Below, piece by piece: positions 1-46,850 of a stretch of DNA of 64,000 nucleotides. The stretch spans positions 94,240,001 to 94,304,000 of the forward strand of contig OZ296648.1 in NCBI GenBank assembly GCA_965655095.1, read 5' to 3'. Origin of the DNA: Haplodiscus bocki (Eukaryota). The notes under the pieces were generated by a model. The model was not told where the DNA came from. It saw nothing but the letters and a program-made list of their open reading frames with translations, and searched no databases. Both the position numbers and the translations under genes were made by a program. Each line of letters opens with the position of its first letter. Within the stretch, counting starts at the first letter, position 1.

Positions 1-1518
1 TCACTGGAGCGATTGCGAAGTGGCCTTGTTTTAGCGGGTTCGGAAGATTTTCGTCAAAACGGGATAGTGCGCCTAAAAAGTGATTTTTTGTCCTCCTGAA
101 CTCTTTTGACAACTTCTGTTTTACTATGCTCTCGATTTCATCAAAAACATCAGTGATGTAATCCTTTTGATACCTACGAGCGTTTGAGTTTTAAGCCAAA
201 TCACTCCTAGGATGTTCCTCTCAATTGTCTTTGTTTAGGACTGCAAGTTTTCGCTTTTTCCTGAAAGTTGCCTTTCTCCAACGAACAGCGAATATTACTG
301 AATAATTTGTTATGGAGAAAATCAACTTGTCCATTGTCAAAAACAATTGTAGGAAACGAAACAAAATGACTGAATCTTATCTTCATGTTGACATTGATAT
401 CAGTGTTTTTCGAAGTTTCATTTCTCCTATTTGAACCTTTTCCGTGGCAGGAAGCCTAATTGTTTGCGCGCCAAGTCAAGGTACAATTAAGGAAAATTAC
501 TCTCGGAATAGACAACAACAAAGATTGAATTGCCGTTTCCGACAGGAAGCAAACATTTTCCATTCTTTTCCTTACTCGAGGGACGCGTCCGTTCTTTCTT
601 TCGACGGAAAATGGACGAACATAATCCTTCAGAAATGGACACCAAAGTGTCTATTCCTGCGCCGACAACTCATTTTACAAATATAGCTCCTTTCTTTCAT
701 TAAAATTTCGAAAATTATTTGATGAAATATTGAACAAGTTCATGGAATATTATCAAATGTTGTCGAAAAAGACAAAATTAAAAAAAATTAAACATAATCA
801 CCACATTCATGTACATTTCATTGCTTGTCACTTCAATAACTTTTACTCCATTGGATGTGGCGAGAAACTTGTAGCTGTACTAGTTTACTCCTAATTCAGA
901 CGAGTAGCGACTAGTGGTTTCCAGAGCAGCTCCGTAGCCACTAGTAATAGCAGTTGAATTAGGCAGTCTGCGCTCAAATGAGGAGTGAATACGAAGTCAG
1001 GCCGTATTCACCACAACACTGAAGCGCGGCATACTAAGTGAAGTGGAAGTGACATCACCAGACTAGTGGCGGTGAAACACGTTTGGAACAAATTCTCACT
1101 CTGAGAGTCAATACATGGTATTTTAGTCAAGCAAGCTACTTATAGCACCGATTTAATTGAATGTACTGTATTGAAGAGCATTTACTGAAATCAGTCAAAG
1201 TATTTACACTGAAAAGGTGGATTTTTTTTATTTTAATTAAAAAATTATATTATTATAAAAATAGAACTTTTCAAGTAAAAAGACTCTGTGAGTACTTTTT
1301 TGTTCTGTAACGGTTCCGTCCTAATCTGGATCATTATGGTTTCGTATGAAATACGTACCAGTATTTATGTACTTTGGTAATAGTTACGTAAAATTTATGT
1401 ATCATTGTGTGAGTACACTAGTTAAAGGTATATACAAAAGTTTTTATTCAAAGTTTGAATGAAAGTAGAATAGTCACAGCCACTTCTGAGCATTGGATTG
1501 TCTCCTTTGCTGGTAGGT
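1..1518 (-). mobile_element. Junction copy of the Gypsy element: end of accessory ORF, LTR/leader and gag N-terminus of the next tandem unit (continues beyond the left window edge)
   Basis: Colinear homology with 12917-14432 (shared blocks cactgaagcgcggcata, ccactagt.a.tagcagttgaatta, gtttcgtatgaaatacg). Positions 1-200 translate on minus to LA*NSNARRYQKDYITDVFDEIESIVKQKLSKEFRRT, matching ORF 12816..13112. Confidence 0.85.
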
Positions 1519-2440
1519 TTTGCAAACATGCTGCGACACTCACCCTTTGTCGAAAAGACATTCCCATGCTCTTTTTTCCGTTTTTGAGTTCTTGACGGCG
1601 GCGGCATGGAGGATGGGTTTGAAGTGGAAGAAATTCGCCTGGGTTCATCGGAGTAAATTGTCCCGACATCTGAAGATGGCTCGCAGGCTTGCACTGTACT
1701 TAAATTCATCTTTGGCGTTGAGATTGAAGACAGTTTCGCATGCGCCGTAGATGGAGGCTCTCCTTCTCATTGTACTGACGCTTTGATGCTTTCACAACCG
1801 CCTTTGTAGCCAATGTGTTGAAGAGGTTAGGCGGCAAGTTCAAGTAGTTTAAACTGGGCGGACTTATGAGAACCTGCCTTCCAAAACAATACGGGATTGT
1901 TGGTTCGTTCGTGACTGATTCAATGGTCAAAATTTCTGGCTCCGGAGATGTTACGGGCGAATTTCTGATCACATCTCTGACATGGATTCCAGATAATTCC
2001 GTACAGTTAGGAACAATCAGTGTCTGGATAATCAGTGTCTGTCTTAAAGACAATCAGTGTCTGCGTGGGGTTTGTTCTCCCGACAACCGCTCCACATAGA
2101 ACACATCCTAATCACTCGACTCAGGCTAATTGGTCGAAATATGTTGGTGATATGAAGAATTACGAATCTGCTACTGCTTCTTGACGGTTGATTAAGAAAA
2201 GTGATTGAGTGTTGCGGGGAAGAATGATTCATTTTCATCAAGCGGTATATTCTTCGATTGTCCCGCGGTAAATGTTAGAGTTGACGAAGTGTGGTAATAA
2301 GCAGTAAAAAAGAAATTGAGGAGAGCTAAGCAAATTGGAAAGTGGAGATCATTGGAAGTGAGGGACACTTGAGTGTTCTTCCTCAGCGTGTCCTTGAGAT
2401 CTCATGCTGAAGTCCTTGCTGGCAGACAAAGTAATCAGTC
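1422..2440 (-). pseudogene. Frameshifted C-terminal part of an accessory Ser/Pro-rich ORF downstream of Gypsy pol (function unknown)
   Basis: Overlapping minus-strand ORFs 2044..2241, 1706..2053, 1422..1709 and 1448..1669 chain together (NEPTIPYCFGRQVLISPPSLNYLNLPPNLFNTLAT ... SSMPPPSRTQKRKK). Same orientation as pol, and its end is repeated at ~14340-14432. Confidence 0.55.
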
Positions 2441-2555
2441 TAAAATCGGATAATTCTGAATTTTATGAATAGAATTATATATCCATCATGTGATAGCCAC
2501 AATCTTCGAAAATGTATCGATAAGAAAGAATGTCAAAAAAGAGTGTCATTCTTTT

Positions 2556-3600
2556 TCAAAAGATCAGTTTGTCCCAAGCAGACACTTAGTGGGTCCTTAG
2601 AGCTGCTGTTTCTTTTTTCCACTTTGATGCATCTGAAAAGAAAGTTGCTTGCGACAGAAGCGAAGAGAGTCCAGTGGAAGGTCCAGAGCGACTTGTTGAA
2701 GAAGGTGATGTGTGTGAGACGAAGCTGGGTAGGGAGGCAGACGCGGAAGGCAATGATGTCGATGTTGGTAGCGTTGCTGATGTTGCAGTCTCCGGATACG
2801 AGTCTGAAGGATTCGCTCTGTCAAAGATGCTTCGTGGAAAAACACTGCCCAAAGGAATCTTGTCCGAGGGCATCGTTGACAGCTGTCATCTTCCACAATG
2901 GGAGTTTTTATATATTCAGCTTTTACCATTAACCGTTGTATTAGAAATTTTTTGCTGGCCAGTTATCGAATTCTGTTAGGTTAGTTATGCTGTAGGCGCT
3001 AAAACCTGAAAATGACTTCGTGAAGCTAATGTGTTTTAGTGTATGACTTTTCTGGTGATCCAGTTTTGCGTCCGATTGAGCCAGGAGTTCCTCGGACAGA
3101 CGTGGCTGGCTAGGAGTTCGATGTTGCTGCGCCAACTGGGAGGAAAATTGTGAAAAGAAGAAGAAGGCCGGCGCACTAGAGAATCCTCTCACAACTGTAC
3201 TTGGGAGTTGGTCGCTCTCTTTTCTACCTTGTAGGTTTTGATTTAGATCAGTTGCTACTTTTTTGGTCAATTTGCAGGCAATGCCGAATTTGCTTCGGAG
3301 TTTTGCGGAAAACTCGACTGGTGTTGGGACTGACGGGCACTTGGACGGGCGTCGCATAGTTCTTACCAAGAGCCCGGTACCGTTGCTTGGAGTCCCAGCA
3401 AGATGTCTTTAGGGCTGTCTGCAGTGAGAGCCGATGCCGTGCGTTGTTAGAGCAGGCGTTTGATGATGGTAATATTTGCTCTCAAATGAGGAAATTACTA
3501 GTACTGCTCCTTATTGACTCCAAGTTTCTCTACTACGTTTCTGCTTTTTAAATCACATCGTAACCCATCCTGCTGCCACTGCACTTCATGCCATTGGGCA
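2556..3600 (-). pseudogene. Decayed cargo gene B of the nested element, unknown function
   Basis: PKDILLGLQATVPGSW (~3365-3412) plus ORFs 2941..3369, 2597..2929 and 2586..2873 join across frameshifts and end in AWDKLIF* at 2556. Confidence 0.5.
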
Positions 3601-3615
3601 GCAACTTTTGTCTTT

Positions 3616-6460
3616 ATGCCGTTTCATCTCCCTAGAGAAGACATAACTTCCGAAACCTCTGATCAATACTAAGCTTTTTCGTTGAGGTTTGATTGTGCCA
3701 ATTCGTTACTTGTGTACAAGCTAATTGTTAGGTTGACAGAACTGAATGAAATACTTGATCAAATCCGTCAGAGGCCATCACAGAGCCTTCAACAAGCGCC
3801 CGAGATTACTGACACAAGTGGCGATGAATCGGACAACAGTAGGAGCTTCACGATATTTCTGTCGAAAAAGACGTTTCGCATGAAAAAGTGCAATGGGGCG
3901 GACGAGCTTGGCATTTTTTCGTCACTGGGCCAACTGGCACGGCCAATGAACCCAGCCATTTTTACTGCCAGATTTGCCGGAAAAATGTTTCGGTCTCAGT
4001 CCATGGCCATCATGAGATTTTGCGCAATTTCCAGGGAGAGGCCATCTTCCCCATGATTAGAGTTTGCGTATTCAGACACCAGGATGGCAAATTGCAGACT
4101 TCTCAGGCAGGCTGCTCAGTGAGGACGAACAGCAGCATCAGAGTAGCAAGATATGGAAGGACCCTTTAGTTGTTCGGGATCGTGATTTTCCATTCAACGA
4201 AGATTTCATTGCGAATGAGGTTGGAGTGACTGAACAGAAAATGCGACTGTTGACGAAGGTCATATCTCTCGTTCAGGTGTTGCAGGCAGGAGGGAGTTAT
4301 GCCCAAGTTTAAAAACTGTGGTCACAGTTCGTCATCACGGCCGGAAACATCAACATGGGAGCTGCATGGAACCACGATTAAGTCTTGGTGGATTCGGTGA
4401 AGTTGCCTGACATCGTTCGTGTCATTTTGAGATGTCAATTGTTGTTTTGTTTTTAGTCGATCGTGATCAATGGAATGCTGCCACAGATCTGATCACGTGC
4501 AATCGGATACACGAAGGTTCACAAAGTTCATAGCCTTGAATTCGAGGAGTGCGGTCTGGTCATCTGGGCCTCTTTACATACTTGAGACAGAAACAATTTC
4601 CGTCGTGTTGCCGTTAGTTTTCTGGACAGTATTGAGAGCGATGCCGCCCCCAAACTGTCTGTTGTTGAATCCGTGGTTGCTGCTGTCGATAACGCAGAGT
4701 CTGCAGTCGCCATTTCTGGAGAGTGTCAAAGTCTCGGTGAGACATATGTGGAGTATTTGGGTAGCTGGTACAGAGAGAGACTCGTTGACCACGCAATCTT
4801 TCTTTGCGGTTACTGAAGAGATGTCTGCACCAGTTGGCGTCGTCGGTGTTCGGTTGCTTGGACTCCTTTTCCATGACCGAATATATTTTGACTCGATTGA
4901 AGAGGCAGAACTACGTGCTTGGTTGAGGTCGCAATCCAGTGTCCGCGCGCTATCATCACAAATGAACTGCAAATGCCATTGCTGGTTGATATCGTAAACA
5001 AGGTTGTAGGTGTCTGGCCACTCATTGTGTCGTATCCCTATGAAACTGGTGAGAAAACTGATGGAGATAGGTCAGTCGTATAAAGAATTCTTGATTTTTG
5101 TTTCAAATCATCGCATTGCTGTCCTCAATGTTTTTTTTTGTTTTGGAAGAAGGGGATCACTGGATAATTTTACATCATCCAAATGGCACGGACCAAATTC
5201 TACTTTTTCCACATGATCCTTGAAATCTGCAAATCTGGCGTTTTGCATTGCTCCATTTGGCTCACGTTGGTACGTGTGAGCTCAAGATAAATTTCGATAA
5301 ATCTCGGGCAATTTCCAGTATACTCCTTGTTGATTCCCATTCTGGGCATTTCCGGTTGGCCAGGTGATGTCCATAGCATTGTCATATACATCAGTAGGGA
5401 AATTAGGAGATTTCCGTGTTACTCCCAGTTTCAGTCCCACTAGGTATGTCGAAGCATACCTCTAGCAGCACTCCCTGTTCATTCCTCAGTTTTCTGGGAT
5501 CAAGCTGGGACGTTTTTTGTATGACTCTTAGTTTGTTCAACATGCTGTGATACCGGGGGAAACTAGGAAACTTTTCGTATCATTCCTCGTTTGCTCCTCA
5601 TTCTGTGGGTGGAAGAAGTGGTTTATGACTCAGTTTATTCATTGTCGCGGTGATTTTGTTGCTCACAATTTCACTTATCTGATAACTGGGAGGGCCCACA
5701 ATTGCTATCTGGGCTTTGGAGGACTTTCAAGGCTTGTTTTGTGCTAGCTGCAGAAAATCAAAGTCAGCCTCAGCCTGCCTGTGGTTGAAAAATCTGAAAT
5801 ATATATGCTGCCCAGGCATTTGTGTTTTGCTCGCATCAACGAGGAACACGTTTTGGAGGGAAAACGGCTGGCAGCAGCCCTTCGACAAAGTGAATAGTGT
5901 GTACCTGAGGGCAGAATTCCCCAGAAACTGTCGTCAGTTCCTGAACGAATTCGTGAGCACCGTCTTATCAACAATGGCAGCACGTTCTTTGGTTGGGCAA
6001 AGCCTTAGCTGCATCTAGCCAAAAATCAGTGTCAAAGGAGACAAATAGTCGTCGTTTTACTTTTTTGGTCAGCTGACTGCCGGACAGCAAGTCGTCAATA
6101 TACACTCGAGAGCGTTGGTTTGACGTTGAGAGTGTGACTTCCTCTTTGGTTGGCGAAGGAGCTGCCCGTAATGGTGTCGGGATCATAATGATCGTTGAGG
6201 CGAGGGACGTAAAGTTTTCGAACGAGAGCCATGATTTCAGTCTCCCCAGTAGTTGTCGGACCCATTCCAGACCCGGGAAGGGAAGAAAGGGGCGTATTTC
6301 AGCCAGTCCCAGTTTGAAGAGAGAAGAAATTTACGTCGTCAGCTCTTCCCCGGCTCAACCATCAATTGGGGCTGCTCTTGAGAAGAGTTTTGCTAAGTCG
6401 GGAGCCAGAAGAAGCAACCGTGATCCAGAAGAATGCCTAAAGTTCACAGGAGGGACATAA
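3616..6460 (+). pseudogene. Decayed, spliced cargo gene A with a hAT/BED-type zinc finger (transposase-derived?)
   Basis: ATG at 3616. GT-AG introns at 3687-3731 (branch site ctaat) and 4388-4456 (ttgttttgtttttag; read-through ends in a stop). Motif FYCQICRKNVSVSVHGHHEILRNFQG, with the last His restored by a frameshift at ~4040. Coding-like sequence continues 4457-5040 and 5716-6460, interrupted by an unrelated ~5040-5715 segment. Confidence 0.55.
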
Positions 6461-6558
6461 AAAACCTAATTGTTTTAACTGTGTTGGTGGACTTTGTCTT
6501 TGTAGTTATTTGTTGTCTGAATTTAAATGCAGTAGCCGTCTTTTCGATGTAGGGAGAT

Positions 6559-6876
6559 TGAGTATAAAACGTGTCACTGTACAGGGATTATCCTCATATT
6601 ACTAGGCAAAACTTGAATTTACTCCGTAATGTATCCGGTATCAGAAATAACGAATTGTCGAAAGTGGTGCCTGGAAAGCCTTCGAGAGCATACTAGAGTC
6701 TATTAGGACGCTGTGTTGAAATCGAATTTCCAGCATCTTGCAAGTGCCAAAAATAGTTAAAATCACTCTTTAGTGCGCAACGTTTGTCTCGCAAAGACTC
6801 TTAGGAGCTTGGAAGAATGAGTAGGTAATGCGCTTATTACTTCCGTAACAGGTTCCTACGGTTACGCTGTTCGACA
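6559..6876 (+). repeat. Putative 3' LTR (~318 bp) of the nested element
   Basis: Starts TGAGTATAAAA right after a PPT-like tract and ends TCGACA at the junction with the interrupted pol. Confidence 0.5.
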
Positions 6877-9800
6877 CCCGTATCCGTTCCGTCATATAAT
6901 CCATCTGTATGAGGAAAATTCGGGAAAACTTTTTCGTATGGCTCCTGAAATGGTACTCATTTCGTCGTTTGCTGGGTCAGATTGTAATGCCATCTCTGGT
7001 GAATTGGGTTTGTTAGGACAATCTTGGTCGCTCTCAAAACTAGACTTTTCACAATCACAATCCCATATTCTGGCGTACAAATCATCTTGCTTTATGGTGG
7101 CCTCACGGTCTTGTATTCTTTCTTGTGGCGTGGTTCGTGCGTGGGGTACGGGTTGACAGTCTGTGAATTGCCGTAATCACATACGACGAAGCACTTGGGT
7201 TTTGTCTGTACCACATTTGCGAATCAATTATTTGATGTTCAGTAAAACTCTTTCAACATTGTATGGACCTGTCCATCGAAAATCTGTGAAGGGAAGTTTA
7301 CTTTCTTGATAATTTGCCTTGTGTTGTAACAAATACAAATAGTCTCTTTCTAGTTATGATGCATTTGCTTTCTTGTCATGGTGCGCTTTCTTCTTAATGT
7401 AGGCTTGCATGGTCTTCTTTCGGTGATATTGGTGGATCATTTCTGTTCAAAATTTTTTAGGTCAACTCGTAATTCTGGTGTGCTTTTGCGGTTGAATGCC
7501 CATTTCGAAATCTAGGACGTTGTATGGAATGCATCCATGAAACACAATGCTTGGTTCACAGCCAATGCTCTTGTAGTAAGTTGTGTTGTAATTCAAGACT
7601 GCAATGCTGACGTTTTTCTGACTTAATGATCTTCTCTCGCTTGTTTCAGTCTTTATTGCTTGTTTGAGTGACGTGTGTGATCGCTCAAGCATCCCAATTG
7701 TTTGCGCGTGCTTCATTGTGGCGTGTTTTAGCGTAGGGCTAAGGACATAAGTCACTTCTTTAATTTCGTGAGACACAAAGGTTGATCCCTTGTCAGAAAC
7801 GATTTTTGTTGAAAAGTAGGCGTGCTTGGTCAATATATTAAGTATAACTTTGGCAATTGTTTCTGGCATCTTGTTTAGATGTAGGGTAGGCAATTAAACA
7901 CCTGGATAACACGTCCATCGCTGTCACTACAATCTCAAAGCCAACGGATGGAGGTACCTCCGGAAAACAAAACAATTTGCATGGCGTCTTCTGGTGCTGC
8001 GGTATGTTGGTTAGGGTTTTCTCAGGGTCGGGCGCGTGAGTCTGTGACCAGTCTGTGATTCTCTGATGTATTGCTCACATAACAGGACCCACTTCTTGAT
8101 CAACTGCTTCCGATGATCAAGTAAAAGTACTTTCCTCTGTATGCAAACAATGCCTTTATGATTCCGGGATGTCTACCGCATTCTCTCTTCAGGTTCCCGA
8201 GTAGTTTGTCAACAAATTACTTGGGTTTGAGAACTTGGTAGTGTTTGACGCTATCAGTTTCTCCATAGAATTCCTGGAATAGCAGTCCATCTTTGAGAAT
8301 GACACGATCTTCATTTCTTTGTAATGCTTGTGTCGTCTATCCGTCGTTAGTAGCACCTCACCATCTGGTTGGCCAAGTGTTTCGAGTTTCAGGTTTTCCG
8401 GAAAAAGATCGACATCTGGCTCTGCTTGCATCCATGAATTTGGCTTGTTTCCGTTTATGGAGTAGGACGTAGTGTTTCAGTCGATCTTTGTGAAGTCTTT
8501 GATACTTGGCTTTATTGAGGTTGGTTCCTCAATTGATGCCCATTCTGTTGCCCTCTTTCGGGGTTGCTCTGTGTGTTCAGGGGTTGGTTCTTCAGTCTCA
8601 TTTTCACCAAATGTTTGTTTGAAGATTTTTTCTTCATCTGCAACATCCAAGGAATATATTGTCACCTCAATGGGTGTTGTTTGTACGTCCTCTCTGATTT
8701 TGAGACGGATATTCTCCATGGTTTTCAATTCTAGTCTGGAGAGAAATTTAGCTGCTTTGTTGACTGAACCAGCGATATGTCCTATTTTGAAGTTAAACTG
8801 CATGACATAAACGCTTTTGTTCCAAAAAGAAGTTGAAATAGCAATTGTCTGAAAAAAACGTATGATTGATATAATATATGTTAGGAAAATTGTCGGCTTT
8901 GATGCTTCCCACAAAAGGTGAGCAAACTCAAGAAATAGATCAAGATTTTTAAATGCGCAGGGGTGAAAACTTTTGGTCCGAATGCTACCGGTGCATAGGA
9001 TTTGCCCTTTGATTGGATCTTTTGGTCTGGATTGTCCTCGATACTGAGGGCAAAGCCCGCGTTTTTAAAGCCTTCATCCATCATGAAGACAAGTGGTTTT
9101 CCAGGAACGGGTTGAGTCAATGCTGATTGACAAAAGATACTAGGGGCTTTATTCACTGAATCAGAGTTTCTTCAATTCTGACGTGACAATGGTTGGCAAG
9201 GCTGCTTTTAAAAGCCTGTAAAAAGGTTGGTCTTCCCAACCAACCTGGGACTAAAGTTTTAGTAGTTATTTACGCATCCCAGGTAGCGCTTTAGCGCTTT
9301 TCTTGAATTGGGGAAGCTGAGTTTGTCGAGGAAGTTTTGAATTTGCCGAGCTTGCGGTCAATTTCCGTCTGGTGAAAGGGTTCTGCCTAGGAAATCATTT
9401 TGTCTGACTAGAAAATGGTACTTTTCTTTTGTCAGTTTCAATCCTGTTTTGCCCAAGTTTTTGAAGACTGCCCGGAAGTTCCGGGTAGGGTCCGTAGCAT
9501 TGTTCGCTGCAATCCCAATAACGACCATGTATTGAGCACATTGGTCAGCTTTGACAACTGGATCCAAGTAATCTCGCATGAATCTTGAAAAAACAAACAC
9601 AAACATGGTGAGACCTTCTGCAAATCTTTTGTATGCGAAAGTTCTTCCAGAGAAACTACTTGCACTGCTAGCGTTTCCACAAACCGTTAGTCCGCCGTTT
9701 GCAAACATAGATGTGCTTGGGACCAATCCCGCTTGCAGAACAGAGTTCCTCGCCAGCTGTTGTGCTACATCTGACAAAAGGCTGACTGGATGATGATTAT

Positions 9801-11443
9801 TAGTGTAATCATCTGCAAATAGATTTTTGACTTTCATGAGATCCACAAGGAGACGTAGTTTTCCGTTGGATATTCTTTGAGCAAAAATTGGACTTGCGTA
9901 CTTTGAAAAGGGCAGTACTGTGATAAATCCACATTTGCGCATAGGATCAAGGTCAACAATTAAGACTTCTTTCAGGTTGATTGGTTTTGGAAGGTTTCGG
10001 CAATTACGAGCTTGGTTATTTTGTGGTATGAGTTTCACCTTGATTTCCGTTTTCAACTCAATATCCAATCGATGTCTGGCAAAAAGGTTGTGATACTCAA
10101 CGAGAATATCTTCTAGAGCTTATTTCTCAGCTTAGCTGACCAGTGTGTTGTTCAAATGCACTCGTTCAAGTAGTTTTTTCTGATTCAGCATAGTCTATGA
10201 GATTCCATTTTTCTTTCTCCATGGATTCGTTTAATACTTTGAGGATTTGTGTCTGGATTGGGGTGTGATCCTCCTTTTTCCCAGCTTTTCCAGGTGTCGC
10301 AAACCAAAAAGTGTTGTTTTGCAGATCGGGTTTGTTTGTTCTAAGTAGCTCATTCAGGTAAGTGGCCAGATGCAAATAAGTTTTCGGAATGACGCTGATG
10401 ATTACCTAGTCCACTGGTTTGATGAATTTGGATTGCTCCGGAGTGACTACGGACAACTCGGCAATCTGTGTATTCTTTTTGATCATGTAATGTGATTCCT
10501 TTGTGTTTGTTACTCTGACTGGTACTTTTTTGTCCAAAATTGCTGACATTCAGTGTGGAAACTGCAGACTGGCTGTTTCCGTGACTTTTTCTACTGGTGT
10601 CACAGTACCTGTTGTGTTCCTTTCTGATGGGTGGTCAACAAACGCTTTGATCGTCTTCGTTGTCTTTGGTGTTATTGTTGAGGTTATGTGAAGAGCAACA
10701 GCTTGAGATTTAGCTCTTTTTTTTCACTCGCAGCGCTTTTCACTTGGTTTGTCAAGTGTGAAAGATGGACGAGGCCATGTTTAGTGTCGAAGAATACACT
10801 GTTGTTTGTCATGAAGTGCAAACTTATGATCGGCCCTGTCAACTTCTTCATCACGACAAAGTTTTCCACAAATAAATGGTATCGAATAACATGTATGAGT
10901 GTGATTGTTGTTAACGGTTTTTCTACTTGGCCGTTTGCCACCTGAATTTGGATTTTGGGAGGGTTGTTGATTTTCAAGATATTGGCGGGGGTTTGTCGTA
11001 TGATTCTGGTCATTGCAATCCAGGCCATTGTACTAACTTAAGCTCTTGAGTCAACTAGGGCATCTTTTGTGAAGTTGTTTCCGAAACCCAGAGAGCCATA
11101 CAGCATTTCTTTTTTCATTTTAGGCTTTCTAAGGAGTACAATGCTATGTACAGTTCATTTGCAATTTCATCCCCCACAAGTTTTTTTCTATCTGTGAAGT
11201 TGTAATATTGGGAGTGGGATGGTTGTCGTCTCCATTGTAATTAGCTGTCATGTCACTTTTGATTTCTTGGATCTCGGGATGTTTTTCTTGGAAGTCGTTG
11301 AGGCACCGAACTGGTATGATCCTAGTTTGGTTTTCCAGAGACTGTTTTGTTTTTTTGATGTCAGGATACGGATTTTTTAGGTCGGGTCCGTTTATTGGTG
11401 ACGTTTGTGATTCTACATCATTTTCTTGTTTCAATTCAGGCAT
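6877..11443 (-). pseudogene. pol: Ty3/Gypsy pol (protease, RT, RNase H, integrase) with many stops and frameshifts
   Basis: Protease DALVDS (~11050). RT SKYASPIFAQRISNGKLRLLVDL, with QYMVVIGI as decayed YVDD (9358..10068). RNase H PLVFMMD..AGFAL..YAPVAFG (8881..9156). Zn-binding HPGI (~8165). Integrase IVSDKGSTF..HAQTIGMLERSH..YNTTY (7462..7893). GPY/F-like RWTGPY (~7265). Domain order PR-RT-RH-INT. Confidence 0.93.
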
Positions 11444-11589
11444 CTAGGTGTTATTAAGAGTTGCAGTGTTTGAGCTGTTATGGCTAATGAATATATCAGT
11501 CTCCGGGGATTGCCAGACAGCCTCTGAGATTGGTGGAAGTTTTTTGTCGAAAAAATTTCAGTCGGTCAGTCGCAGCTCTGGAGTGAAGA

Positions 11590-13185
11590 CTTGGCATTTT
11601 TCGTTCGAATTGTGGACCGCAGCTTGAGCACCTTCCTTTTAATTGTTTTGACTGTCTTTTTGCTGGACATGGTTCTGTCCTACTGGTCTCCTGTTCCGGG
11701 GAGGCAGTCTATTAGCTGCAATGGCTCCAAAATAGCATTTCTCTGTGGAGTGGTTTGTTTTTCCACATCTTTCAAGGCAAACAACTTACAGGGTGAGAAA
11801 ACCGTTTTTAGCTTTTTTCCTGCTCTGTTATTGTTTTTGTTGCTTTTGTTGTTGTTGTTATTGTTCGGGATAGAAAAATTAGCGCTCTGGTTCCTGTTGC
11901 CGGAACTAACTTGAGTCCCATCAGCCTGTTCTTCCTGTCTTTTTAGGTGATTTCTGTAATGTCCAGGTCTTTTACAGTCGAAGCACGTTTTTTCCGGTCC
12001 GGTCTGTTGGCATTCGTGTTTGTTGTTTGTTGGCTCACAGTGTTGACGTGTAGCTCATCAAGGGCTTCCAAACCTTTGGGCTCCATTTCGTTTTCGAGGT
12101 GTGTCACAATCTGTTCATTTGTGCCATTTTCCAAATGGGACTGGTTCAACTATTTTTTCAGATGCGGAAGCATTGTAACAAACATGAATTGTTCAAAGAT
12201 GGAAAGGGCAGCTATTCCGAATGCGTCTTTGTCTAGTTTTTGAAATTCATCAAGAAAATCAACTAACTTTTGATTTGCTGGGTTGAACACAAGATTCTAA
12301 AATTTATGTTTGGCCGTTGCCATCGATTGAGATTTTATGAAATTCCCACGGAAAACTGCCAGGATTCCTGCCAATTTCTCTGGGGTTGGGCTGTTTTTGT
12401 TTTTGAATGTCTCCAGCGCACCTCCCCTCATAAGAGAGTGGAAATAATTGATTCTGTAGTCTTCAATCAGTTGGTTGTGAATCTTGAGGTTTGTCTGGAA
12501 AAGGTCATCACAAAGCTCAAACTTCTTTGACTTCCCATCAAACGTGGGCATTGTAGTGGTTAGCGACATTGGACACTAGGAAGTTCTGTGAATAATGCAA
12601 TTAAAGTTTGTAGAGTTGCTTTTGTCTGCCAACTGCTGAAGGGCCAACAAAAGTTGGTCTGCTTCGAGCGTTGAAGGGGTGTTTTCACCGGGAACATGCG
12701 GTTGACTCCCGAAGCGGTTTTTGCTTTGCCTGCCTGAAGACGTTCCAGGAGAGCAGTAGGTGATTTCTTCTTGAACTCCTGTCAACATGTCGTGTGGATA
12801 TTCTGGGTCAAATTTTCACGTAGTTTGACTCTGAGAGACAATCGCTTGAGGTTGAGGATCCCTCTGGGTGTCGTTCCCATTCGTTCTCTGGTTTGCGCCT
12901 AGTGTGCTCCGGGTGGTCACCGGAGAGGTTCCGGAGTGGCCTTGTATCAGTTGGTGCAGAAAACTTTCGTCAAAACGGGCTAGAGGGTAATTTTGGTTGC
13001 CGGTCCTTCTGAACTTTTTGAACAACTTCTCTCTTATTCTGCCCTCAAATTCATCAAAAAGTTGAGTAATATAGTCCTTTTGAGATCTGGGAGCATTCGA
13101 GTTTTGTGCCAAGTCACTCCTAGGATGTTCCTCATAATTCTCTTTTTTATGGACGTAAGTTTTCGTTTATTCCTCAGAGTTGCTT
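11590..13185 (-). pseudogene. gag: Ty3/Gypsy gag, decayed
   Basis: MPTFDGKSKKFELCDDLFQTNLK..INYFHSLMRGGAL (12297..12569). Zinc-knuckle remnant CGKTNHSTEKC (~11735-11767). Asn-rich (TTG)n tract at ~11825-11865. Confidence 0.85.
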
Positions 13186-14432
13186 TTCTCTCCGGGAAAA
13201 ATAATGAACAACAATTATTAGTGAGTCATTTTTTAGGGAGAAAGTCAACTTGTTGGCTGTCAAAAACAATTGTAGGAAACAAAACGAATAGACTGAATAT
13301 TATCTCAGTAATAGCAATGATTTTTTTGTTTTCCGAAACTTCTTTTCTCTTATAAATATGTTTTGCTTGGCGGGAAACATAAACGTTTGCATGCCAAGTA
13401 AAGGATAAAAAAGGGAAAAGTGCTCTCGGATTAAACAACATCAAAGGTTGAAATGTCGACTCTGGCAGAAAATAAAATTTTGCTTTTCGTTTTTTCCCTC
13501 ATAGGACGCGTCCTTTCAATCTTCCGACGGAAAATGCACATACTCGTTCAGAAATGGTCATCAAAGTGTATATTCCTCCACCGACATCCCAATTTACAAA
13601 AACAGCTCCTTTCTTTGATTAGAAAATGGGAAAACGTGATGAAATAATAAAGATTTTCATGAAAGATTAGCAACATTAGCAACTCTTATGGAAAATGAGA
13701 AAACAAAAAAAAACATACAAAATCACCACATTCATTTACATTTCATCACTTGTCAGTTGCTTAGTTTTTAGTCCTTTAGAAGTGAGAAGAAACTGGAAGT
13801 TTTATTAGTTTACTCCTCATTCGGACGAGTGCCGACTAGTGGTTTCCGAAGCAGTACCACAGCCACTAGTAGTAGCAGTTGAATTAAGCAGCTGTGCTCA
13901 AAATAGGAGTGAAAATGGAGTCACTTCGTACTCACCACAGCACTGAAGCGCGGCATAGTTAGTAAAGTGGAAGTGACGTCATCAGACTAGTGGTGGCGGA
14001 ACACGTAGGGAACAAATTCTCCCTCTGGGAGTCATTACACTGCAATTCATTCAAGCAGGCTACATATAGCGTCAATTCAATTGAAAGTACTACATTGAAC
14101 GGCATTTAATGAAATCAGTCAAAGTAAATTTTTTTTTATTTTTTTAAGTATTTAAATGAAAATATTAATATAAAGAAAGCACTTCGCAGTTAAAAATACT
14201 CTGTGAGTACTTGTTTGGTCCGTAACGGTTACGTCCTAAGCTGGATCAGTTTGGTTTCGTATGAAATACGGACCAGTAATTATTTAAATTGGTTATGGAT
14301 AAGTATAAGATACTTATCATACTATATGTACACTAGTTATAACTATTTAAAAAAGTTTTGAATTGAACTTTGATTGAAAGTAGAAGAGTCTCTGTTCAAT
14401 GTGAGCAATGGGGTGTCACTGTTGCTTGTAGG
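12917..14432 (-). repeat. Second copy of the junction region (end of accessory ORF, LTR/leader, gag start)
   Basis: Diverged direct repeat of 1-1518; homology stops at ...gcttgtagg 14432. Confidence 0.85.
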
Positions 14433-15559
14433 GATTGACCGCAGACTTTGCAGGTATGCTGCTATAGCGTCTTCTATTTTAAAAGGGTTTTCGCCGGAAG
14501 AATCGAGTCAGTTAAGCTAGGTGGAAGATTTTATTCAATTATGGGTTAGGACATAGAATTCCACTAGACTGATCCCTGTAAAGCCTGGAAACGGATTGCA
14601 TTGCATTGATTGGCACCGGCTCCGGACATCAGGAGACTAGATTTTTTTTCAAAACTAAAGTGCATACATGACTCGAAAAAGTTGTATGAGTTAGCGTTTG
14701 AAGACCAGTTCGTTAAGAAAAAGAAAAATTCCTTTGCAAATCTTCAACCCAAATAGCGAATGTTTTCAATTTATTGAGAAATCATCGGAAAAGATGGTAC
14801 AAAAATTATTCTAGAGTTCTGAGCTCAAGCAGCAAGGATTTCCGAGAGCACGTCAATGTTTTTGACGCTATCCGATCTGGTTCGCCCGAGAAAGTTCCGA
14901 ATTACCAGAATTGCACAACACTGGTTCTCGGATGCGATGAACATTGGATCGAAATATCCGCCTTATACCCCGGACTTCGATCAAAATGGGAAATTGAGGA
15001 CAATACTAAAAGTAGCAGGAAACAACAGCACGTGGCATGCAAAAACTTGCCTGAATTTTTCAGCAAAAGTTAGTTTAAAAAAAGATGTTTAAAATCGTCA
15101 AATTCGTGACCCGAGAAATTTGAAAATGCTTGGAAAAATAAAAAACTCCGAAAATGAACTATCCGTCATAGCCTAACTTTTTTTGTCTTGTTCTGTGTTC
15201 TTTCTGTATTTCTTCTCAGAAGAAATTGGTTACATTTTGGTACCAGGAGTTGTTTATACAAGAACAAGACAGCCAATGTTCGGCGACTTTCATATTTTGA
15301 GATAAACTGTAGAACCGGAGAGACAAAAGTGTCTTCACCCCTTGTCTGACTACTTTCCTTGGCTGCAGTATTTTTACTTTTCCGGTCGCCCGCAAGGGCT
15401 GCCAGCGCCGGCGGATTTTTTTTAAGTCGGCGGTCAATTCTTACATTTGCTGTTAGCTTTTACGCGTGCCTGAATAAACGTTTAGGAAAATGTAATGGTA
15501 TTACGAAGTCTGTAAATACAAACTAAGAAATGCGCATATGTTATGAAACTATCATATTT

Positions 15560-24081: not shown

Positions 24082-24321
24082 CCGGGTTGAAACTTTGACC
24101 GAAATTTTTTCTGTAAAAAGGGGTTAACGGCGGCCAAAATTAGCCACAGAAGTGGTTATTAAACGGAAAAAAAGCGACGTTAACGGCGTTTAACCGGGGA
24201 AATAGCAGAGTTATCGGCGTGAAACCGAACAAATAGCGGCGTTAACTGCGGTTAAGCGAAAAATTAGCGGCGGTAGTTTCCGCTGCTATAGCAGGAATTT
24301 ACCGGCGAATTTTTAACCCTG
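24082..24321 (+). mobile_element. MITE-like element with an internal ~31-bp minisatellite
   Basis: TIR-like ends CCGGGTTGAAA / TTTTAACCCTG. Repeats of AAAATAGCGGCGTTAACGGCGTT.AACCGG. Reverse-complement copy at 62291-62540. Confidence 0.75.
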
Positions 24322-24544
24322 GTCTCTCGGAAAAAACGGTGACCATATTTGCCATCAATAAAATCGCAACGTCTGGATGCTTCATGCTCCCAGTTGAAAA
24401 CAACCACAGTGTTCAAAAACTTCTAAACAGGAAAAGAGCATGAACTACAGAATAATATTATTTAAAAAAATTTAAAACAATGTTATTAAAAATATTGTTG
24501 AATATATATTTGTCGGAAAATTCGAACTCGCAAATCCATTCTGT

Positions 24545-25830
24545 ACCTGCTAAACTTTTGCGTAGTCTTTGCTGGTCATGCCATGGTCACTGACACTCGC
24601 AAGGTTACCACGTGCAAATACAAAATAAAAGCCCGATCATTGCGAAAAAAAGTTCAAACATTGCCGGTTCTTCTACGAACATGTGTTTCATTCAGAAACC
24701 ATTTGAAGACTCCAGACGAAAAAAAAATTTGCCTGGGAAAACAAGCGAAGGAAACACAAGGGCCTAAAAAAAGGAAAAAACAAGGACTTTGTAACTGAGA
24801 TGAGAGGAATAAACAGCACTCAGACTAAAACTGTTGGAACTTTTGCAAGACACGAACTGAGAAGTCAAGTCTTTACATGTTCAACTTTTCTGTAGTCTTG
24901 GTTGGTCTTGACATAGTCACTGACAGTTGCAGGGCTACCACGTGCAGGCGCAAAACCAAAGCCCCATAACTGCAGAAAAAACTACAAAATTCGAAGAACC
25001 TTCTATAAGTATGGGTTTAGTTTGAAAAACCATTTGAAGATTCCACTTTAAAAAAAACTTTTATTCTTTGCACCAGAAAATAACTGACAGGAACACGATG
25101 GCCTCAACAAGGTGAAATAAACAAGCGCCTTGCAAACAGGATGACAGAAAATTAAGGAAATCTATAACTAGCACTCAGACTGCAACTGTCGGATCTTTTG
25201 CCAAACACGAACTGAAAAGTCAAAGCTTTACATTTTCAACTTTTCTGTATTCTTGGCTGAGCATGACATAGTGATTGAAACTCGCGCGATCACTGCGTGC
25301 GGGTGCAAAATCAAAGAGAAACCAATACATAAAAAATGACAAAAGTTGAAGGTTCTTCTACAAACATGTGTTTCATTCAGAAACCATTTGAAAATTTCAG
25401 ATGAAAAAAACTTGCAATTTGCATTACGAAAACCGACAGGAACACCAAAGTCCAACAAAGATGAAATAAACAAAAATATTGTGACTAAAATGAAGGAAAT
25501 CTATAAACAGCACTCAGAGTAAAACTGTCTGAACTTTAGCAGGACTCCGAGGAGAAATCAAATCTTTACATTTTCAATTTTCTGTAGTTTTGTCATAACA
25601 GCGTTACTGACTGCCTCAGGATGCCCACGAATGGTTGGAAAATCGAAGGCCCTTCATTGCTCAAAAACTTACAAAAAATGAAAGATCTTCTATAAACATC
25701 GGTTTCATTTAGAACCTATTTGAAGATTCAAGACAGAAACATGAAAAAACTTAACCTTTGCATCGAAAAACAACTCACAAGAAAACAATGGCCTAATTTT
25801 TGACACATAAGCTAAGACCTTGTAACTAGA
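24545..25830. repeat. Tandem satellite, ~330-355-bp unit, ~3.8 copies
   Basis: Recurring aacttttctgtagtcttggctgg..gtcactgaca..ccacgtgca..aaaccatttgaaga..cagcactcagact. Units start at ~24553, 24883, 25238 and 25576. Confidence 0.9.
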
Positions 25831-31220: not shown

Positions 31221-32959
31221 TCCAGGGGAGGGGGTTATTTTGGTCCTGTTTTCGAACGTTGATCATGTTGACACGGAGTTGGCAAACAGGTGGCGAAAAA
31301 TTCTGCTAACTGAGGGATGATTTCCTTTTCATTATTTGTAATACCAAGGAAAAAAATAGGACCAATCGATCCAGACTTAGTAAAATCAGGAAAACATTTA
31401 AATGCATTTTATCCTTCAAGTTTTTTCCGGCCTCCCGCAGACTGAATATCATAAAATCGAAGCTATAGTAATACTAGAGACTATTGAAAACAGTTGGCTG
31501 CCCTATTATTGAGCACTCCCAAAATCTTAAAAACATGCTAAGCTGAAAAACGAACGTTTTTCGATAGGCCACATTGTAAGTACATCACGAAAACCAAGTC
31601 AACTTCAGCTCTCTGACAAAAAACTGAAAAAAACAGGTCAGAAAAGTCTATTGGTGTTCTAATCTGGAGTCTCCAAGTTTTGGAGATGCAAGAGATTGAG
31701 ATTTCTCAAAAAAATGATGCCTTTCTCAACGACGTTCAATCAACTACCAAGTTTCAGTTGAAAAGGGACCGCCTAAAATCGGATCCAGGAGATGCTCTAA
31801 CAGTTTAACTGTAGCTCATAGTTTACTTTGTCAGACACTTAGGATTCGTTTTCCAACAGATATTTTTAACAGAGGCTATCGTTCCGCCCAAGGAAAAACA
31901 TTGTCCATCCTCCCTTCTCTGTGTATACAGTAAAATGCAGACAATGGCAAAACCTGTCACGCCTCACAAAAAATTCCCGTTGCGTGAAAGCTCAAATCGT
32001 CTAATGTTAAAAACCTATTTGAATTGCCTAGTTTTTTAAAAACACTCCTTGGAGCATATAAAGAATACAGGCAAGTTTCTGAAAATTCAAGGAGTCTGCC
32101 TTTTTTTCAAAGCGCTAATGAGCCTAATTTTTCTACAAGATCCACAGTCAGTGCTGTTTTTACTATGTACTGCAAGATCTGATAAAACACCTGTAAAGCT
32201 TTATCCTGAAGAAAACCCCAAATACTTATTGAAGGCAGTGCCACAAAAAAGTCTTTTGAGTTTTTTTTCCATTGTCCAATAAAACATTGCCGACGCCATT
32301 GTTTAAGTCCATGAGCAGGTTTCGGTAAAATCTAAGTCATTCGTAGGAAAACAATTGCGAAAAAAGCAATCTTTTCGAGGAGAAAAATTCAGCCAGTTTC
32401 ACTGTTCTCGAGTTTTGCAGACATCATGTTAGAAAATTGTTGTGCTTGTCGGGCATTATGGTCCGTGATTCTGATAGTTGTCGGGTTTTATCTTTCGCAC
32501 TTAACGACTCAATACAAAAATAGCTTTTGTCGCTGAAAATCTACGGTTGCCAAATTTTTCAACCCTATCCGTTCTCATCTAAGTTAACATTAAAGAGATG
32601 ATAGTTTTGCGTGGGCTTCCACAAAAAAGTTCTAGCAATATCTCAGCTAACTTAGGAATCATTCCTTTAACACCTCAAAATCCAATAAGGAAAGCCAACC
32701 AAACTTTTCTCCGACTTTAAAAATCTGTGAGTTATATTTCGCAAACAATAGGTTTGTTCCTATGAGACACCAATAGTCGTTAGAAACGCAATTTTTCAGG
32801 AAAAAGAATGTCTTTCAAACCAAAAATTAATTTTCAGTTCCCTTGGTTTTTCACGTTATAGAAAGAATGATCTTCAATTTTGGTGGGTTTTGTATCCAGA
32901 CGCCATTTGCAAAGTTCAGACAAAGAAATTCAAGAATTTTACTATTTGTATAGGAAAAC

Positions 32960-33940
32960 AACACACAGGAACAAAAAAGATTAACAACAAAACAAAAGAC
33001 TTTGCAATAAGGATTGAAGAAATCTAAAAAGATATATTTAAAGCAATCAGACTAAAAATTTTGGATGTTTTATTAGACACGAGCTGAGATGTGAAGATTT
33101 GCATTTTCAACTATTCTGTAATCTTGGCCGGGCATACCATGGTCCTGAAACTTGCAAAGCTACTACATGCAGGTGCAAAATCAAAGCCCAGTCATTGCAG
33201 AAAAGTATTGAGAATGAAACAATTGCCAGAATTAGAGTTTCATCAAAAAACCATTTGAAGATTTTAGGCGAAAGAAAACGAAAACATTGAAATTTGTCAT
33301 TATAGCTCTGAAAAGCAGACCAAATGAGAACAAGGTTTTTTTAAAGAAAACGAACAAAACTTCCGTAACCAAAGTCAACCTAATATTAAAAAATTTGACA
33401 ATGAATTGGGATAAAGAGTTCTGGAACGTTTGACAAACTGGAGCTAAGAACTTAGATCTTTGTCTGATCCATATTTGTATCTTTTAATTCGAGCTTGTCA
33501 TAACTTAGTCACTGACACCTGCATGGTAACCACGTGCAGGTGCCGATTGAAAACCCATCACCGCGGGAATAAAAAAACTGAAAAAGATGGATCAGCTTAA
33601 GCATGCGTTTTATCTAAGGAACTGTTGAAGATTTCAGGCAACGAAAAGAACGGAAATTTTACTTTTGGTATACGTTCATTGGTGAACGTCCGCAGCAACA
33701 CAAAAGCCGAAAAACATGCAAATACAGAGGCGACCAGTGTTCTGGATTTCAAACAAAAATGAAAGAAAAACTGTAGCACCTTCATTGACTGAAACTGTCG
33801 GTCGTTTTGCAAGACTCGAATCAGAAGATGGAGCCTGTAATTGCTTAACACTTTTTGTAATCGTTCTTACTCATGACATATTCACTGTAACTATCTCTCC
33901 CACCAAGTCCAGGCCCACATTGCAAGCCCCATAGTTTTCA
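32960..33940. repeat. Diverged second cluster of the ~340-bp satellite
   Basis: tcagactaaaa..gacacgagctgaga..tgcaggtgcaaaatcaaagccc..ccatttgaagatt and gtcactgacacctgcatggtaaccacgtgcagg match 24545-25830. Confidence 0.75.
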
Positions 33941-45600: not shown

Positions 45601-46794
45601 ATTTTCACCAGTTTCTTTAATTTAACATTGATCGGCTTAACTCCAGGACAACGATATGTCGTCCGTGTACGTAGTTATATAATCGATAATAACAACTACA
45701 TGCTAAGTGAATGGAGCAGCCCTCTTTACGAATCAACCTATCCTTTGGCTCCTTTGAATCCGTTGATTAATAACTGGCATCTTTCCTGGGCAAAATTAGG
45801 AGTAGTAGAAGGTTATCAAGTCAATGTGACGGACGATTTTGGAAGTACCGATAGTTTGAGCATCACAGATTCCATATATGGGAGAAAAGTATCGTTAGAC
45901 GACTTTAACAACTTGAATTTCGTGCCAGGCGGAAAGTACACTTTTGACATTTCTTCTATCAGCAATGATCTGTACAGTTTGACAACAGCAAGAATCGAAC
46001 ACATATTGCCCCCTAGTAATGTTGTGTTCACGAGAATCGAAGAAATTTTGGCTTCCGAAGTCACACTGTCTTGGAAAATTCCGGACGGTAACGTGGAGAA
46101 ATACGTTATCCTTATCATACCTCTTACAAGTGGGAAAAATCAAGAAGATTCTTTTTCAATCGAAGTTGTAGGAAAGTCCTCTAATACTACAAGAGTAGCT
46201 GGCCTAACACCCGGATCAAAGTATTTGTTTGAAATAGTTGCTTCATCCAACAATGTGAGCAGCTTGAAATCTGGCACGTTTTTCACAAATAGTCAACCTT
46301 TACTATCAACAATTGAAGTTCACTCAATTGAAGAAACAAATGCTTCCTGTTCCTGGGATTTCGTCGGAATTGTTGACAACTTTACTGTCAGCCTTCGCGA
46401 TACCGAATCACAAACCATAGCAGGGTCAGTTTCAAACATAACAGACGTAACTTTACTCTCCGTTAAATTTAAGGACTTGGCAGCCGGTGAGACTTACTCT
46501 TGCTATGTTGTCGCTGCTTCGAGCAACCGAGAGAGCGATCCGAAATTGGCAGCCTTCACCACGCATCCTTTCTCGCCTGAAGTTGACGTCACCTATCTCG
46601 GAACTAACAGCTTCTCAGCCAATTGGTCTGTACAGGCAGAGAGAAGCAAATTCGACAGTTTTAGAGCTGTTTTGACGGGATGTCGAGAGGAGCCTTTCAA
46701 TGAGGCTTTTGACACGACTGTTTTCTCTTATGTTTGGGTTAATTTGGTTCCAGGAAGTTTACGCCAATTGAACCTCTGGACAATCTCCGAAACA
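42621..46794 (+). CDS. Giant (~4.2 kb) host exon: rest of CBM14 then ~15 fibronectin type III repeats; frame breaks at ~42661 and ~43500
   Basis: Acceptor tttttactgtgtag|GCA gives AIEACDVGRGFHE, in phase with the 21539 donor. FN3 motifs LSW..Y..L.PGT.Y recur in ORFs 42806..43576 and 43633..46803 (the latter frame is open from 43495). Donor ACA|gtaagt at 46795. Confidence 0.9.
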
Positions 46795-46850
46795 GTAAGT
46801 TGAACTTAAGTTAATAATGAGTTCACTGAAAGAAATATAATATCTGCATT

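Follow-up and report, generated by a model that had tools for sequence, protein, structure and literature searches.

The region analysed here raises the question of which element carries the genes at its left end and of where those genes came from. For this 64,000-nucleotide stretch of Haplodiscus bocki DNA (the window), the original prediction had proposed an LTR retrotransposon equipped with an accessory module, a pair of divergent genes. This broad idea was upheld by the gene order in the window and in a related locus (L001), but the LTR, the orientation, the second gene, the first intron and the position of the promoter were all wrong. Paired LTRs, a gag CCHC knuckle, the RT-RH-IN order and a GPY motif identify window positions 1 to about 14.47 kb as a Ty3/Gypsy element, that is, a decayed LTR retrotransposon of about 14 kb that lies on the minus strand and encloses the cargo region (cf. 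Table 1). Comparison of the two repeats (1-1522 and 12917-14437) revealed 1154 identical bases among 1494 aligned (77.2%; K2P 0.27). The window copy is old and decayed, with stops and frameshifts. The right-hand LTR copy has TA at 14466, as opposed to TG at 1538 in the window and at 3670 in L001, and beyond 14523 the contig depth drops to single-copy level. No inner LTR boundary was visible with contigs aligned over 12600-14800. The best candidate for CA-TGG, i.e. the end of the 5' LTR followed by the primer-binding site, lies inside gag (1879 in L001; about 12788, decayed, in the window), while upstream of gag no conserved CA-TGG was found in either sequence, and the window contained no tRNA genes to match.

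This orientation bears directly on the original prediction. As gag, RT and integrase are all encoded on the minus strand, the larger cargo gene (gene A), which had been placed in the sense of the LTR, is antisense to the element. The stretch 6559-6876, which had been taken for the LTR, follows pol; no second copy of it was found in the window or in seven related loci (best blastn E 0.27), and it was never paired in any of them. A plus-strand element that ends in this LTR, keeps sense introns by packaging unspliced RNA and carries a gene B on the minus strand (3600-2556) could be read from 6551-6876, where a few purines stand in front of a TG...CA stretch, but the lack of a second copy of 6559-6876, the minus-strand gag-pol, the presence of the real LTR pair elsewhere and the closed frames of gene B in the related locus L007 leave this explanation with next to no probability. 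With gene A being antisense, the argument for packaging of unspliced RNA falls as well.

In the window, the RVT_1 profile matched positions 9358-10119 (E 5.7e-6), and the pol segment 7162-8936 was 70% identical at the nucleotide level to L001, in which pol contains RT_RNaseH, Integrase_H2C2, rve and Integrase_p58_C domains and gag contains DUF1759, Retrotrans_gag and zf-CCHC. Similarity to pol extends down to 6916, leaving 56 codons of L001 pol to be placed below; at its extreme tail it is not significant (103 of 500 shuffles), and the pol stop at about 6750-6770 is an extrapolated one. Of 8,000 candidates scored against L001 gag, 3,583 matched at E <= 0.001, many of them full-length, and by this sequence count the Gypsy family carrying a gag of the L001 type is abundant. 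Resemblance of gag and pol, and the LTR-rich and AT-rich genomes reported in PMC9911081, tentatively suggested an acoel flatworm as the host. No relatives of gene A, gag or pol were present among viral contigs, and Rfam gave no matches at E <= 1 for L001 and L007. Troyka and Kuafuorterviruses, as presented in the accessible parts of PMC12440569 and PMC11673190, resemble the element in being animal LTR elements with a Gypsy-like domain order. Membership in Troyka was rejected: the available portion of its description gives LTRs of 100-400 bp with CG termini, a knuckle of the form CX2CX8-10HX4C and no GPY/F (PMC12440569), and in the present element the LTRs exceed 1.5 kb and start with TG, the knuckle is CX2CX4HX4C and a GPY motif is present.

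Table 1. Features of the Gypsy element and its cargo in the window (coordinates on the forward strand).
Feature	Position	Strand	Observations
3' LTR	1..1538, continues past the left edge of the window	-	TG start at 1538; PPT-TG junction common to L001 (3670); similarity to right-hand copy ends at 1538
PPT (purine-rich tract)	1539..1552	-	immediately upstream of 3' LTR, within the gene C frame; cleaner in L001
Gene C	~1460..2135, ends mapped from L001, approximate	-	intronless acidic/Ser-Pro-rich ORF, sense; decayed in the window; crosses PPT; last ~26 codons in 3' LTR
Spacer between divergent starts	2136..2529 (~400 bp)	.	non-coding; putative internal promoter region
Gene A exon 1 (acidic N-terminus)	2530..2899	+	ATG aligned with L007 start; plus frame stop-free in L007, pN/pS 0.48; 2-3 stops in each of the three minus frames
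Gene A exon 2	3040..3206, boundaries less certain	+	
Gene A exon 3	3278..3468	+	donor GT in the window and 3/3 relatives; pN/pS 0.91
Gene A exon 4	3552..3668	+	flanking AG in 3/3 and GT in 5/5 relatives, decayed in the window; pN/pS 0.50
Gene A exon 5	3740..4387	+	K/R-rich patch, CxxC...H...H BED-like zinc finger, then helical region; 3 stops and frameshifts in the window copy
Gene A intron 5	4388..4456	+	GT-AG intact in the window; GT/AG in 6/6 relatives covering the position
Gene A exon 6	4457..5077	+	predicted RNase-H-like core, then helices; pN/pS 0.18-0.46
Gene A exon 7	5147..5228	+	AG in 4/4 and GT in 3/3 relatives
Gene A exon 8 fused to C-terminal tail	5659..6460	+	tblastn match up to aa 880; C-terminal match score 81, 0/500 shuffles
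Gap between converging gene A and pol ends	6461..6915	.	includes extrapolated pol tail and the previously proposed LTR
pol (RT, RNase H, integrase with GPY motif)	6916..11130, upstream end approximate	-	numerous stops and frameshifts
gag	11500..13190	-	CX2CX4HX4C knuckle; decayed; first ~90+ codons within repeated region
5' LTR	12917..14466	-	outer end 14466; inner end at or below 12917

The cargo had been predicted to lie between pol and the 3' LTR, and this is where it was found in the window and in L001, with the order pol(-)/A(+)/C(-)/LTR; L007 has the order C/spacer/A. Linkage of gene A to pol was seen in 2 of 8 loci, i.e. in both that are long enough, five being too short and L007 ending before pol. 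We are highly confident of the overall architecture, namely a minus-strand Gypsy element in which pol is separated from the 3' LTR by an antisense, multi-intron gene A and a sense gene C. The remnant of gene A spans 2530-6460 on the plus strand and is thus larger than the gene predicted originally (3616-6460), whose strand and end were correct, but whose start was not. In L001, nine predicted exons separated by eight GT-AG introns join into a single 1,177-codon frame that is interrupted by one stop, and the window copy is without about 600 nt of this model (roughly aa 890-1050). As for gene B, its two open frames carry 6 and 2 stops in L007, where the plus-strand exon model is open; it was discarded as an antisense shadow of the first exons of gene A.

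One of the two introns that had been predicted, intron 5 in Table 1, proved to be conserved and, to the extent that DNA sequence can tell, real; its identity with L001 was 26-36%, compared with 51-68% in the flanking exons. The other (3687-3731) has neither end aligned with GT/AG in L007, and the conserved intron nearby is 3669-3739. When splice sites were defined by L001, their dinucleotides were intact at all 32 aligned positions in L002-L007, of which L003 and L004 are near-identical. The full-length genomic RNA of the element is gene A read backwards, in which the introns stay unspliced and survive every round of reverse transcription. Gene A thus keeps its introns because it is antisense to the element, and, the genomic RNA being the other strand, no Rev-like export of unspliced transcripts is required for them. 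Analysis of exons 5, 6 and 8, which are stop-free in every relative where aligned, gave pN of 0.14-0.36 versus pS of 0.67-0.86 with saturated synonymous sites (the L003/L004 pair set aside), and pN/pS ratios of 0.18-0.46. Selection is weak on exons 2-3, and none was demonstrated for exon 3 (pN/pS 0.91). Judging from these substitution ratios, about 700 amino acids of the gene A protein are kept under purifying selection in related copies.

The true divergent partner of gene A is gene C, which encodes a protein of 239 aa in L001. Its tblastn match in the window covers 2119-1632 (45-48% identity, E 5e-24), and in L007 it is stop-free, 66% identical over 173 aa and has a pN/pS of 0.46. No membrane segment was detected in it (maximum 19-residue hydropathy 0.55), so it is not an env-like third sense ORF, and Pfam returned nothing under E 0.5. 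The bidirectional promoter had been expected near 3600; the head-to-head spacer is instead at about 2135-2530. The core of this spacer is 93% identical between L001 and L007, and the flanking genes are 60-72% identical. Within it, at about 2362-2397, lies a conserved inverted repeat with a hairpin z of -1.8 to -2.6, in which the window copy carries two both-sided changes. Summed contig depth at 80% identity, which does not represent copy number, was 219 at 4001-4500 (within exons 5-8) versus 101,151 over RT, and many family members may either be without gene A or carry a diverged one.

The origin of gene A was addressed with protein models and profile comparisons. The CxxC...H...H motif is invariant in all eight proteins compared. 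The Atlas leads for exon 5 were zf-BED (0.84) and ZBED RNase-like (0.83), and that for the C-terminal part was a Dimer_Tnp_hAT cluster (0.89) with this family on 22% of its members; the leads follow the hAT order, with zf-BED N-terminal and Dimer_Tnp_hAT near the C-terminus, and all hAT-family rows are under 0.9. The model of exon 6 (pLDDT 56.7) consists of a three-strand meander, helix, strand, helix and strand, followed by helices. When this model was submitted to Foldseek, the hAT transposase Hermes filled ranks 1-8 of 350,542 chains (best E 3.9e-3), and it was first again for a longer model of exons 5-6 with the intron read through (pLDDT 41.0, E 0.051), both E-values being short of 0.001. 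Hermes (PDB 8edg, 8sjd, 4d1q) and gene A also have a similar predicted domain order, whereas identity is 10-14% with weak E-values, no conserved catalytic aspartates were seen in gene A, and gene A adds a long acidic N-terminus and a basic Ser/Pro tail. These models suggest that gene A probably descends from a hAT DNA transposase.

Alternatively, gene A might be unrelated to hAT and have been captured from the host as an orphan zinc-finger protein whose alpha/beta fold is generic. No significant sequence match was obtained: Pfam gave no hAT, zf-BED or Dimer_Tnp_hAT match for gene A, a PDB sequence search gave nothing meaningful, and none of 1,037 candidates was a homolog of window 4052-4840. 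Furthermore, Hermes was absent from the top 50 rows of VIA-align with both models, the best rows being ribosomal proteins, SRP9/14 and kinases (Z 5-6). However, the leading position of Hermes in Foldseek, also for the longer model, and the fact that the Atlas leads of separate exons are hAT parts in the right order make an orphan origin unlikely.

If gene A is of hAT origin, its protein is very probably catalytically dead, as the alignment of four relatives indicates. In these, the end of strand 1 shows no conserved Asp, strand 4 is followed by no Asp at all, and CxxH is absent, with the DDE placement based on predicted strands and known hAT positions. For Hermes, the portion of PMC6027215 available lists D180, D248, R318, W319 and E572 as key residues. 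The original prediction had also named a TIR-bounded hAT transposon as the opposing case; the search for TIRs around the cargo was negative (the best inverted self-matches had E 0.31 in window 1501-7000 and 0.39 in L001), though the gene itself looks hAT-derived. With no conserved DDE triad, no CxxH and no TIRs, gene A was rejected as an active hAT DNA transposon. Nested insertions are common and introns are frequent in hAT genes, and one could imagine an ordinary hAT transposon that was inserted in one Gypsy copy and then amplified as a passenger, or that still encodes an active transposase. Yet gene A has an identical position in lineages with saturated synonymous sites and its protein is under selection, which, along with the lack of TIRs and of conserved catalytic aspartates, renders such a passenger very unlikely.

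We hypothesize that a captured hAT transposase, its catalytic residues likely lost, now acts as a nuclear DNA-binding regulator of its Gypsy element; the chances of this whole reading seem to us about even, and the narrower claim that the gene A protein regulates its own element is equally balanced. A promoter of its own within the conserved spacer would drive gene A, whose transcript would then be spliced. The protein would reach the nucleus by means of the K/R patch and bind DNA with its BED-like finger, set on the scaffold of the former transposase; candidate sites are the spacer inverted repeat or the LTR. With its acidic N-terminus (18% D/E), the protein might then switch the element on or protect it against silencing. 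Retroviral nef/bel are placed across PPT and U3, and gene C, located in the same way, could be a second, disordered accessory factor.

The dead transposase might instead serve integration, through chromatin tethering of the pre-integration complex, nuclear import or target choice. The whole predicted scaffold has been retained, and about 700 aa under selection is more than a simple activator needs; in addition, gene A has a K/R patch, and plant antisense ORFs have been proposed for nuclear import (PMC7264820). However, nothing inherent brings the product of an antisense gene with a separate spliced mRNA into the Gag particle, and an N-terminus this rich in D/E suits transcriptional activation, so that we consider a role in integration rather unlikely. 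It is highly improbable that the protein targets other elements, binding hAT ends or poisoning hAT oligomers and thereby suppressing rival DNA transposons. Its DNA-binding and predicted dimerisation parts are retained and dominant-negative transposase derivatives are known, but no target element was found, and the divergence evident from the lack of a hAT family match argues against mixing with living hAT subunits.

Going back to the regulator of its own element, it is possible, though we lean somewhat against it, that in an abundant (probably animal) Gypsy lineage a class I element domesticated a class II enzyme, and that one conserved spacer drives both a spliced dead hAT regulator and its nef-like, U3-overlapping partner. 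If true, a cassette like that of complex retroviruses would have been made from a DNA transposon, and an antisense accessory gene would have a traceable origin. If gene A is hAT-derived, a transposase would have been domesticated by another mobile element and not by the host. A plausible ancestor of known structure makes both origin and function testable with respect to DNA target, dimerisation and loss of catalysis.

The ZBED family consists of domesticated hAT proteins. DAYSLEEPER/SLEEPER, a domesticated hAT as well, combines an NLS and a BED finger with a hAT scaffold without transposition residues, according to the accessible part of PMC3499209. SLEEPER and ZBED proteins are similar to gene A in having a K/R patch beside a BED-type finger, a hAT scaffold, lost transposition residues and no flanking TIRs, but they are host-domesticated and fixed at one locus, whereas the apparent host of gene A is a retrotransposon that carries it along.

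In plant Gypsy elements, antisense ORFs in the stretch from pol to the 3' LTR are reported in the available sections of PMC7264820 and PMC11963269 for maize Grande (gene23), rice RIRE2, Silene Retand (TRP28/PF04195) and PvRetro13; they do not resemble other TEs, and where they came from is mostly unknown (PMC7264820). These elements and the present one have in common a long region between pol and the 3' LTR, an antisense gene and a proposed regulatory role, and gene23 has an internal promoter of its own, its product being nuclear. In contrast to them, the present element gave no TRP28 match and its gene A points to hAT, has the intron number and length given above and has a sense partner, gene C, that overlaps PPT and U3. 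Boty (brtn) of Botrytis/Sclerotinia (PMC7264820) is a non-plant Gypsy element with an antisense extra gene at the same position. Gene A encodes a large BED-finger/RNase-H-like protein. An LTR element with a hAT-derived gene was not found in print, subscription journals and Repbase being outside the search. Antisense cargo is already known from plant and fungal Gypsy elements; here it has a plausible hAT origin. Multi-exon genes such as gene A are liable to be annotated as host genes in these genomes.

A repeat search of the window recovered two direct repeats separated by 12.9 kb, and their alignment gave 1154 identical bases out of 1494 (K2P 0.27). Between them, all on the minus strand, lie a decayed gag whose knuckle reads CX2CX4HX4C, a reverse transcriptase (Pfam RVT_1, E = 5.7e-6), RNase H and integrase. 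A related 11.8-kb contig (L001), whose gag and pol frames are open and contain the expected Pfam domains, is collinear with the window across pol, the plus-strand multi-exon gene A, the minus-strand gene C and the LTR. The left and right copies in the window cease to resemble each other where a minus-strand purine tract is followed by TG, whereas L001 still matches the left copy beyond this point, into gene C. The strand of gag-pol, the purine tract and the breakpoints therefore place the element on the minus strand, so that 2450-6876, which the original prediction had assigned to a plus-strand element, is its pol-to-3' LTR region. Linkage of pol and gene A was seen at two loci; in L001, units may have been merged through a collapsed LTR. 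In each of the two window copies the repeated region takes in at least the first 90 gag codons. One possibility is an LTR of about 1.7 kb with the gag start inside it and the primer site within gag, a Ty1-like arrangement; the other is that the elements are tandem units with a common LTR. A candidate primer site was noted within gag, and an H-M-V-T-G-like unit occurs at the gag/repeat spot in 2-4 copies in 32 of 120 gag relatives. Troyka was compared as a possible class of element and excluded.

Coordinates of features in the window and in related contigs
Feature	Window	Related contig	Strand	Remark
Direct repeats	1-1522; 12917-14437			
Purine tract and TG	1538	L001 3670	minus	right-side similarity end, 14466
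Gag codons within repeat	1-270; 12917-13190	L001 1879-2266		
Candidate primer site	~12788	L001 1879		CA-TGG
Gene A	2530-6460	L001 4719-9092	plus	nine exons in L001
Conserved gene A introns	3669-3739; 4388-4456		plus	
Gene C		L001	minus	239 aa; sense, intronless ORF; true divergent partner of gene A
Spacer core		L001 4420-4680; L007 642-903		
Spacer inverted repeat	2362-2397			arms ~12 bp, loop 8 nt
Second LTR pair	50591-51576; 57248-58210			73% identical, 6.65 kb apart
DUF1759 gag-like ORF	54570-55322		minus	with second LTR pair
Overlapping open frames	42665-46803		plus	303 and 1,102 codons
Repeat arrays	24479-25814; 32889-33929			units ~330-370 bp, 60-88% identity
31-bp tandem repeat	62317-62461			inverted copy, 24107-24275

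No second occurrence of the LTR originally proposed at 6559-6876 turned up in the window or in the seven related loci (best E 0.27). Since pol similarity extends to 6916 and 56 L001 pol codons are still unplaced, part of this segment is probably the pol tail; that tail, when tested directly for similarity, gave no significant match. Summed contig depth was 998 over 6501-7000 vs 69,204 over 501-1000, which speaks weakly against an LTR here, since such depth does not equal copy number. The depth data also suggest that gene A may be missing or diverged in many family members.

A query with 3843-4169 gave three protein clusters among 21 candidates, with 14 proteins in total, whose alignment led to six metagenome loci (from 227 pattern matches) and one genome-contig locus (from 45). 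In L001, eight GT-AG introns of 67-204 nt are predicted, and the spliced model is a single 1,177-codon frame interrupted by one stop. Across ten splice sites defined on L001, GT/AG was kept at all 32 covered positions in the other six loci (L002-L007, L003 and L004 being nearly identical). The window copy is degraded: 8 of 14 mapped splice sites are canonical, exons 5, 6 and 8 carry three, two and three stops besides frameshifts, and about 600 nt are absent near the 3' end. Over all pairs except L003/L004, these exons showed pN of 0.14-0.36 and pS of 0.67-0.86, and intron 5 was only 26-36% identical, which indicates that long-term selection acts on the protein of the predicted splicing. Of the two introns first reported in the window, 4388-4456 proved to be a conserved gene A intron, and the conserved intron at the place of the other (3687-3731) has different ends. 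The divergent gene B predicted at 3600-2556 was rejected as a shadow of gene A exons, its two minus-strand ORFs carrying six and two stops in L007, a 2.3-kb contig in which exons 1-5 form a spliced open plus-strand frame of 332-340 codons. In exon 1 the plus frame is stop-free with the lowest pN/pS (0.48), and each of the three minus frames is broken by 2-3 stops. Exon 4 likewise favors the plus frame (0.50), and exons 2 and 3 discriminate less (0.66 and 0.91).

The gene A protein has an acidic N-terminus (18% D/E), a K/R patch and a globular core and ends in a basic Ser/Pro tail; its CxxC...H...H finger is invariant across the aligned proteins. The exon 6 model (pLDDT 56.7) shows an RNase-H-like strand/helix order followed by a helical region, and Foldseek placed chains of the Hermes hAT transposase at ranks 1-8 of 350,542 (best E 3.9e-3); Hermes again ranked first (E 0.051) for a model of exons 5-6 that was of lower quality. 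ESM Atlas pointed to zf-BED (0.84) and a ZBED RNase-like domain (0.83) in the N-terminal part and to Dimer_Tnp_hAT (0.89) in exon 8. No row among these hAT leads passed its own threshold. We consider it probable that gene A descends from a hAT transposase. That it is a non-hAT orphan seems rather improbable: sequence searches against Pfam and the PDB gave no hits and the VIA-align top 50 held other alpha/beta folds (Z 5-6) and no Hermes, but the Foldseek and ESM Atlas leads speak against it. Hermes requires D180, D248, R318, W319 and E572 (excerpt of PMC6027215). In four aligned gene A relatives, with residues placed partly from established hAT motif positions, we found no conserved aspartate at the end of strand 1, no aspartate after strand 4 and no CxxH, and no TIRs flank gene A. 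It was therefore rejected as an active hAT, though it may still be hAT-derived; given these absences, a passenger or active hAT is very unlikely.

Gene C is acidic and Ser/Pro-rich, shares 66% (L007) and 45-48% (window) identity with L001, and has a pN/pS of 0.46. It was rejected as env because no membrane segment was found in it, and its frame crosses the purine tract and enters U3. The starts of genes A and C are 408-425 nt apart, and the spacer core is 93% identical between L001 and L007 vs 60-72% for the flanking genes. This putative promoter region gave no clear coding signal and no Rfam match. Its inverted repeat, compared across three sequences, has changed in both arms at two places in the window copy and may be an RNA hairpin or a DNA palindrome.

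Genomic RNA would start in the right LTR and run leftwards, reading gene A backwards, so that the introns would be hidden from the spliceosome and copied intact. The puzzle of sense introns retained through packaged unspliced RNA thus dissolves. The original observation is confirmed in part, and the original reading as an element with an accessory module finds partial support only with its orientation reversed. Gene A itself would be expressed from a separate antisense mRNA starting in the spacer, as demonstrated for maize Grande gene23 (PMC7264820). Antisense genes at this position are known from Grande, RIRE2, Retand, PvRetro13 and the fungal Boty (PMC7264820; excerpt of PMC11963269); they lack similarity to other TEs and are mostly of unknown origin (PMC7264820). 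Literature searches listed no open-licence paper on an LTR element that carries a gene derived from a hAT. The layout of the gene A product resembles that of domesticated SLEEPER proteins, with an NLS, BED finger and hAT scaffold and the transposition residues gone (excerpt of PMC3499209). As its most likely role, to which we give about an even chance, the product would bind the element's own DNA and then activate the element or shield it from silencing. Help with integration is unlikely, and suppression of other hATs is the least credible role.

Elsewhere in the window, a second, old LTR pair accompanies a gag-like ORF, and two long open frames with fibronectin type III repeats, in which introns are not evident, are probably a host gene. 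Repeat arrays and a tandem repeat were also noted. L007, a piece of an intron-containing eukaryotic retrotransposon, is filed in a bacterial MAG titled Candidatus Poribacteria and is likely a binning contaminant.
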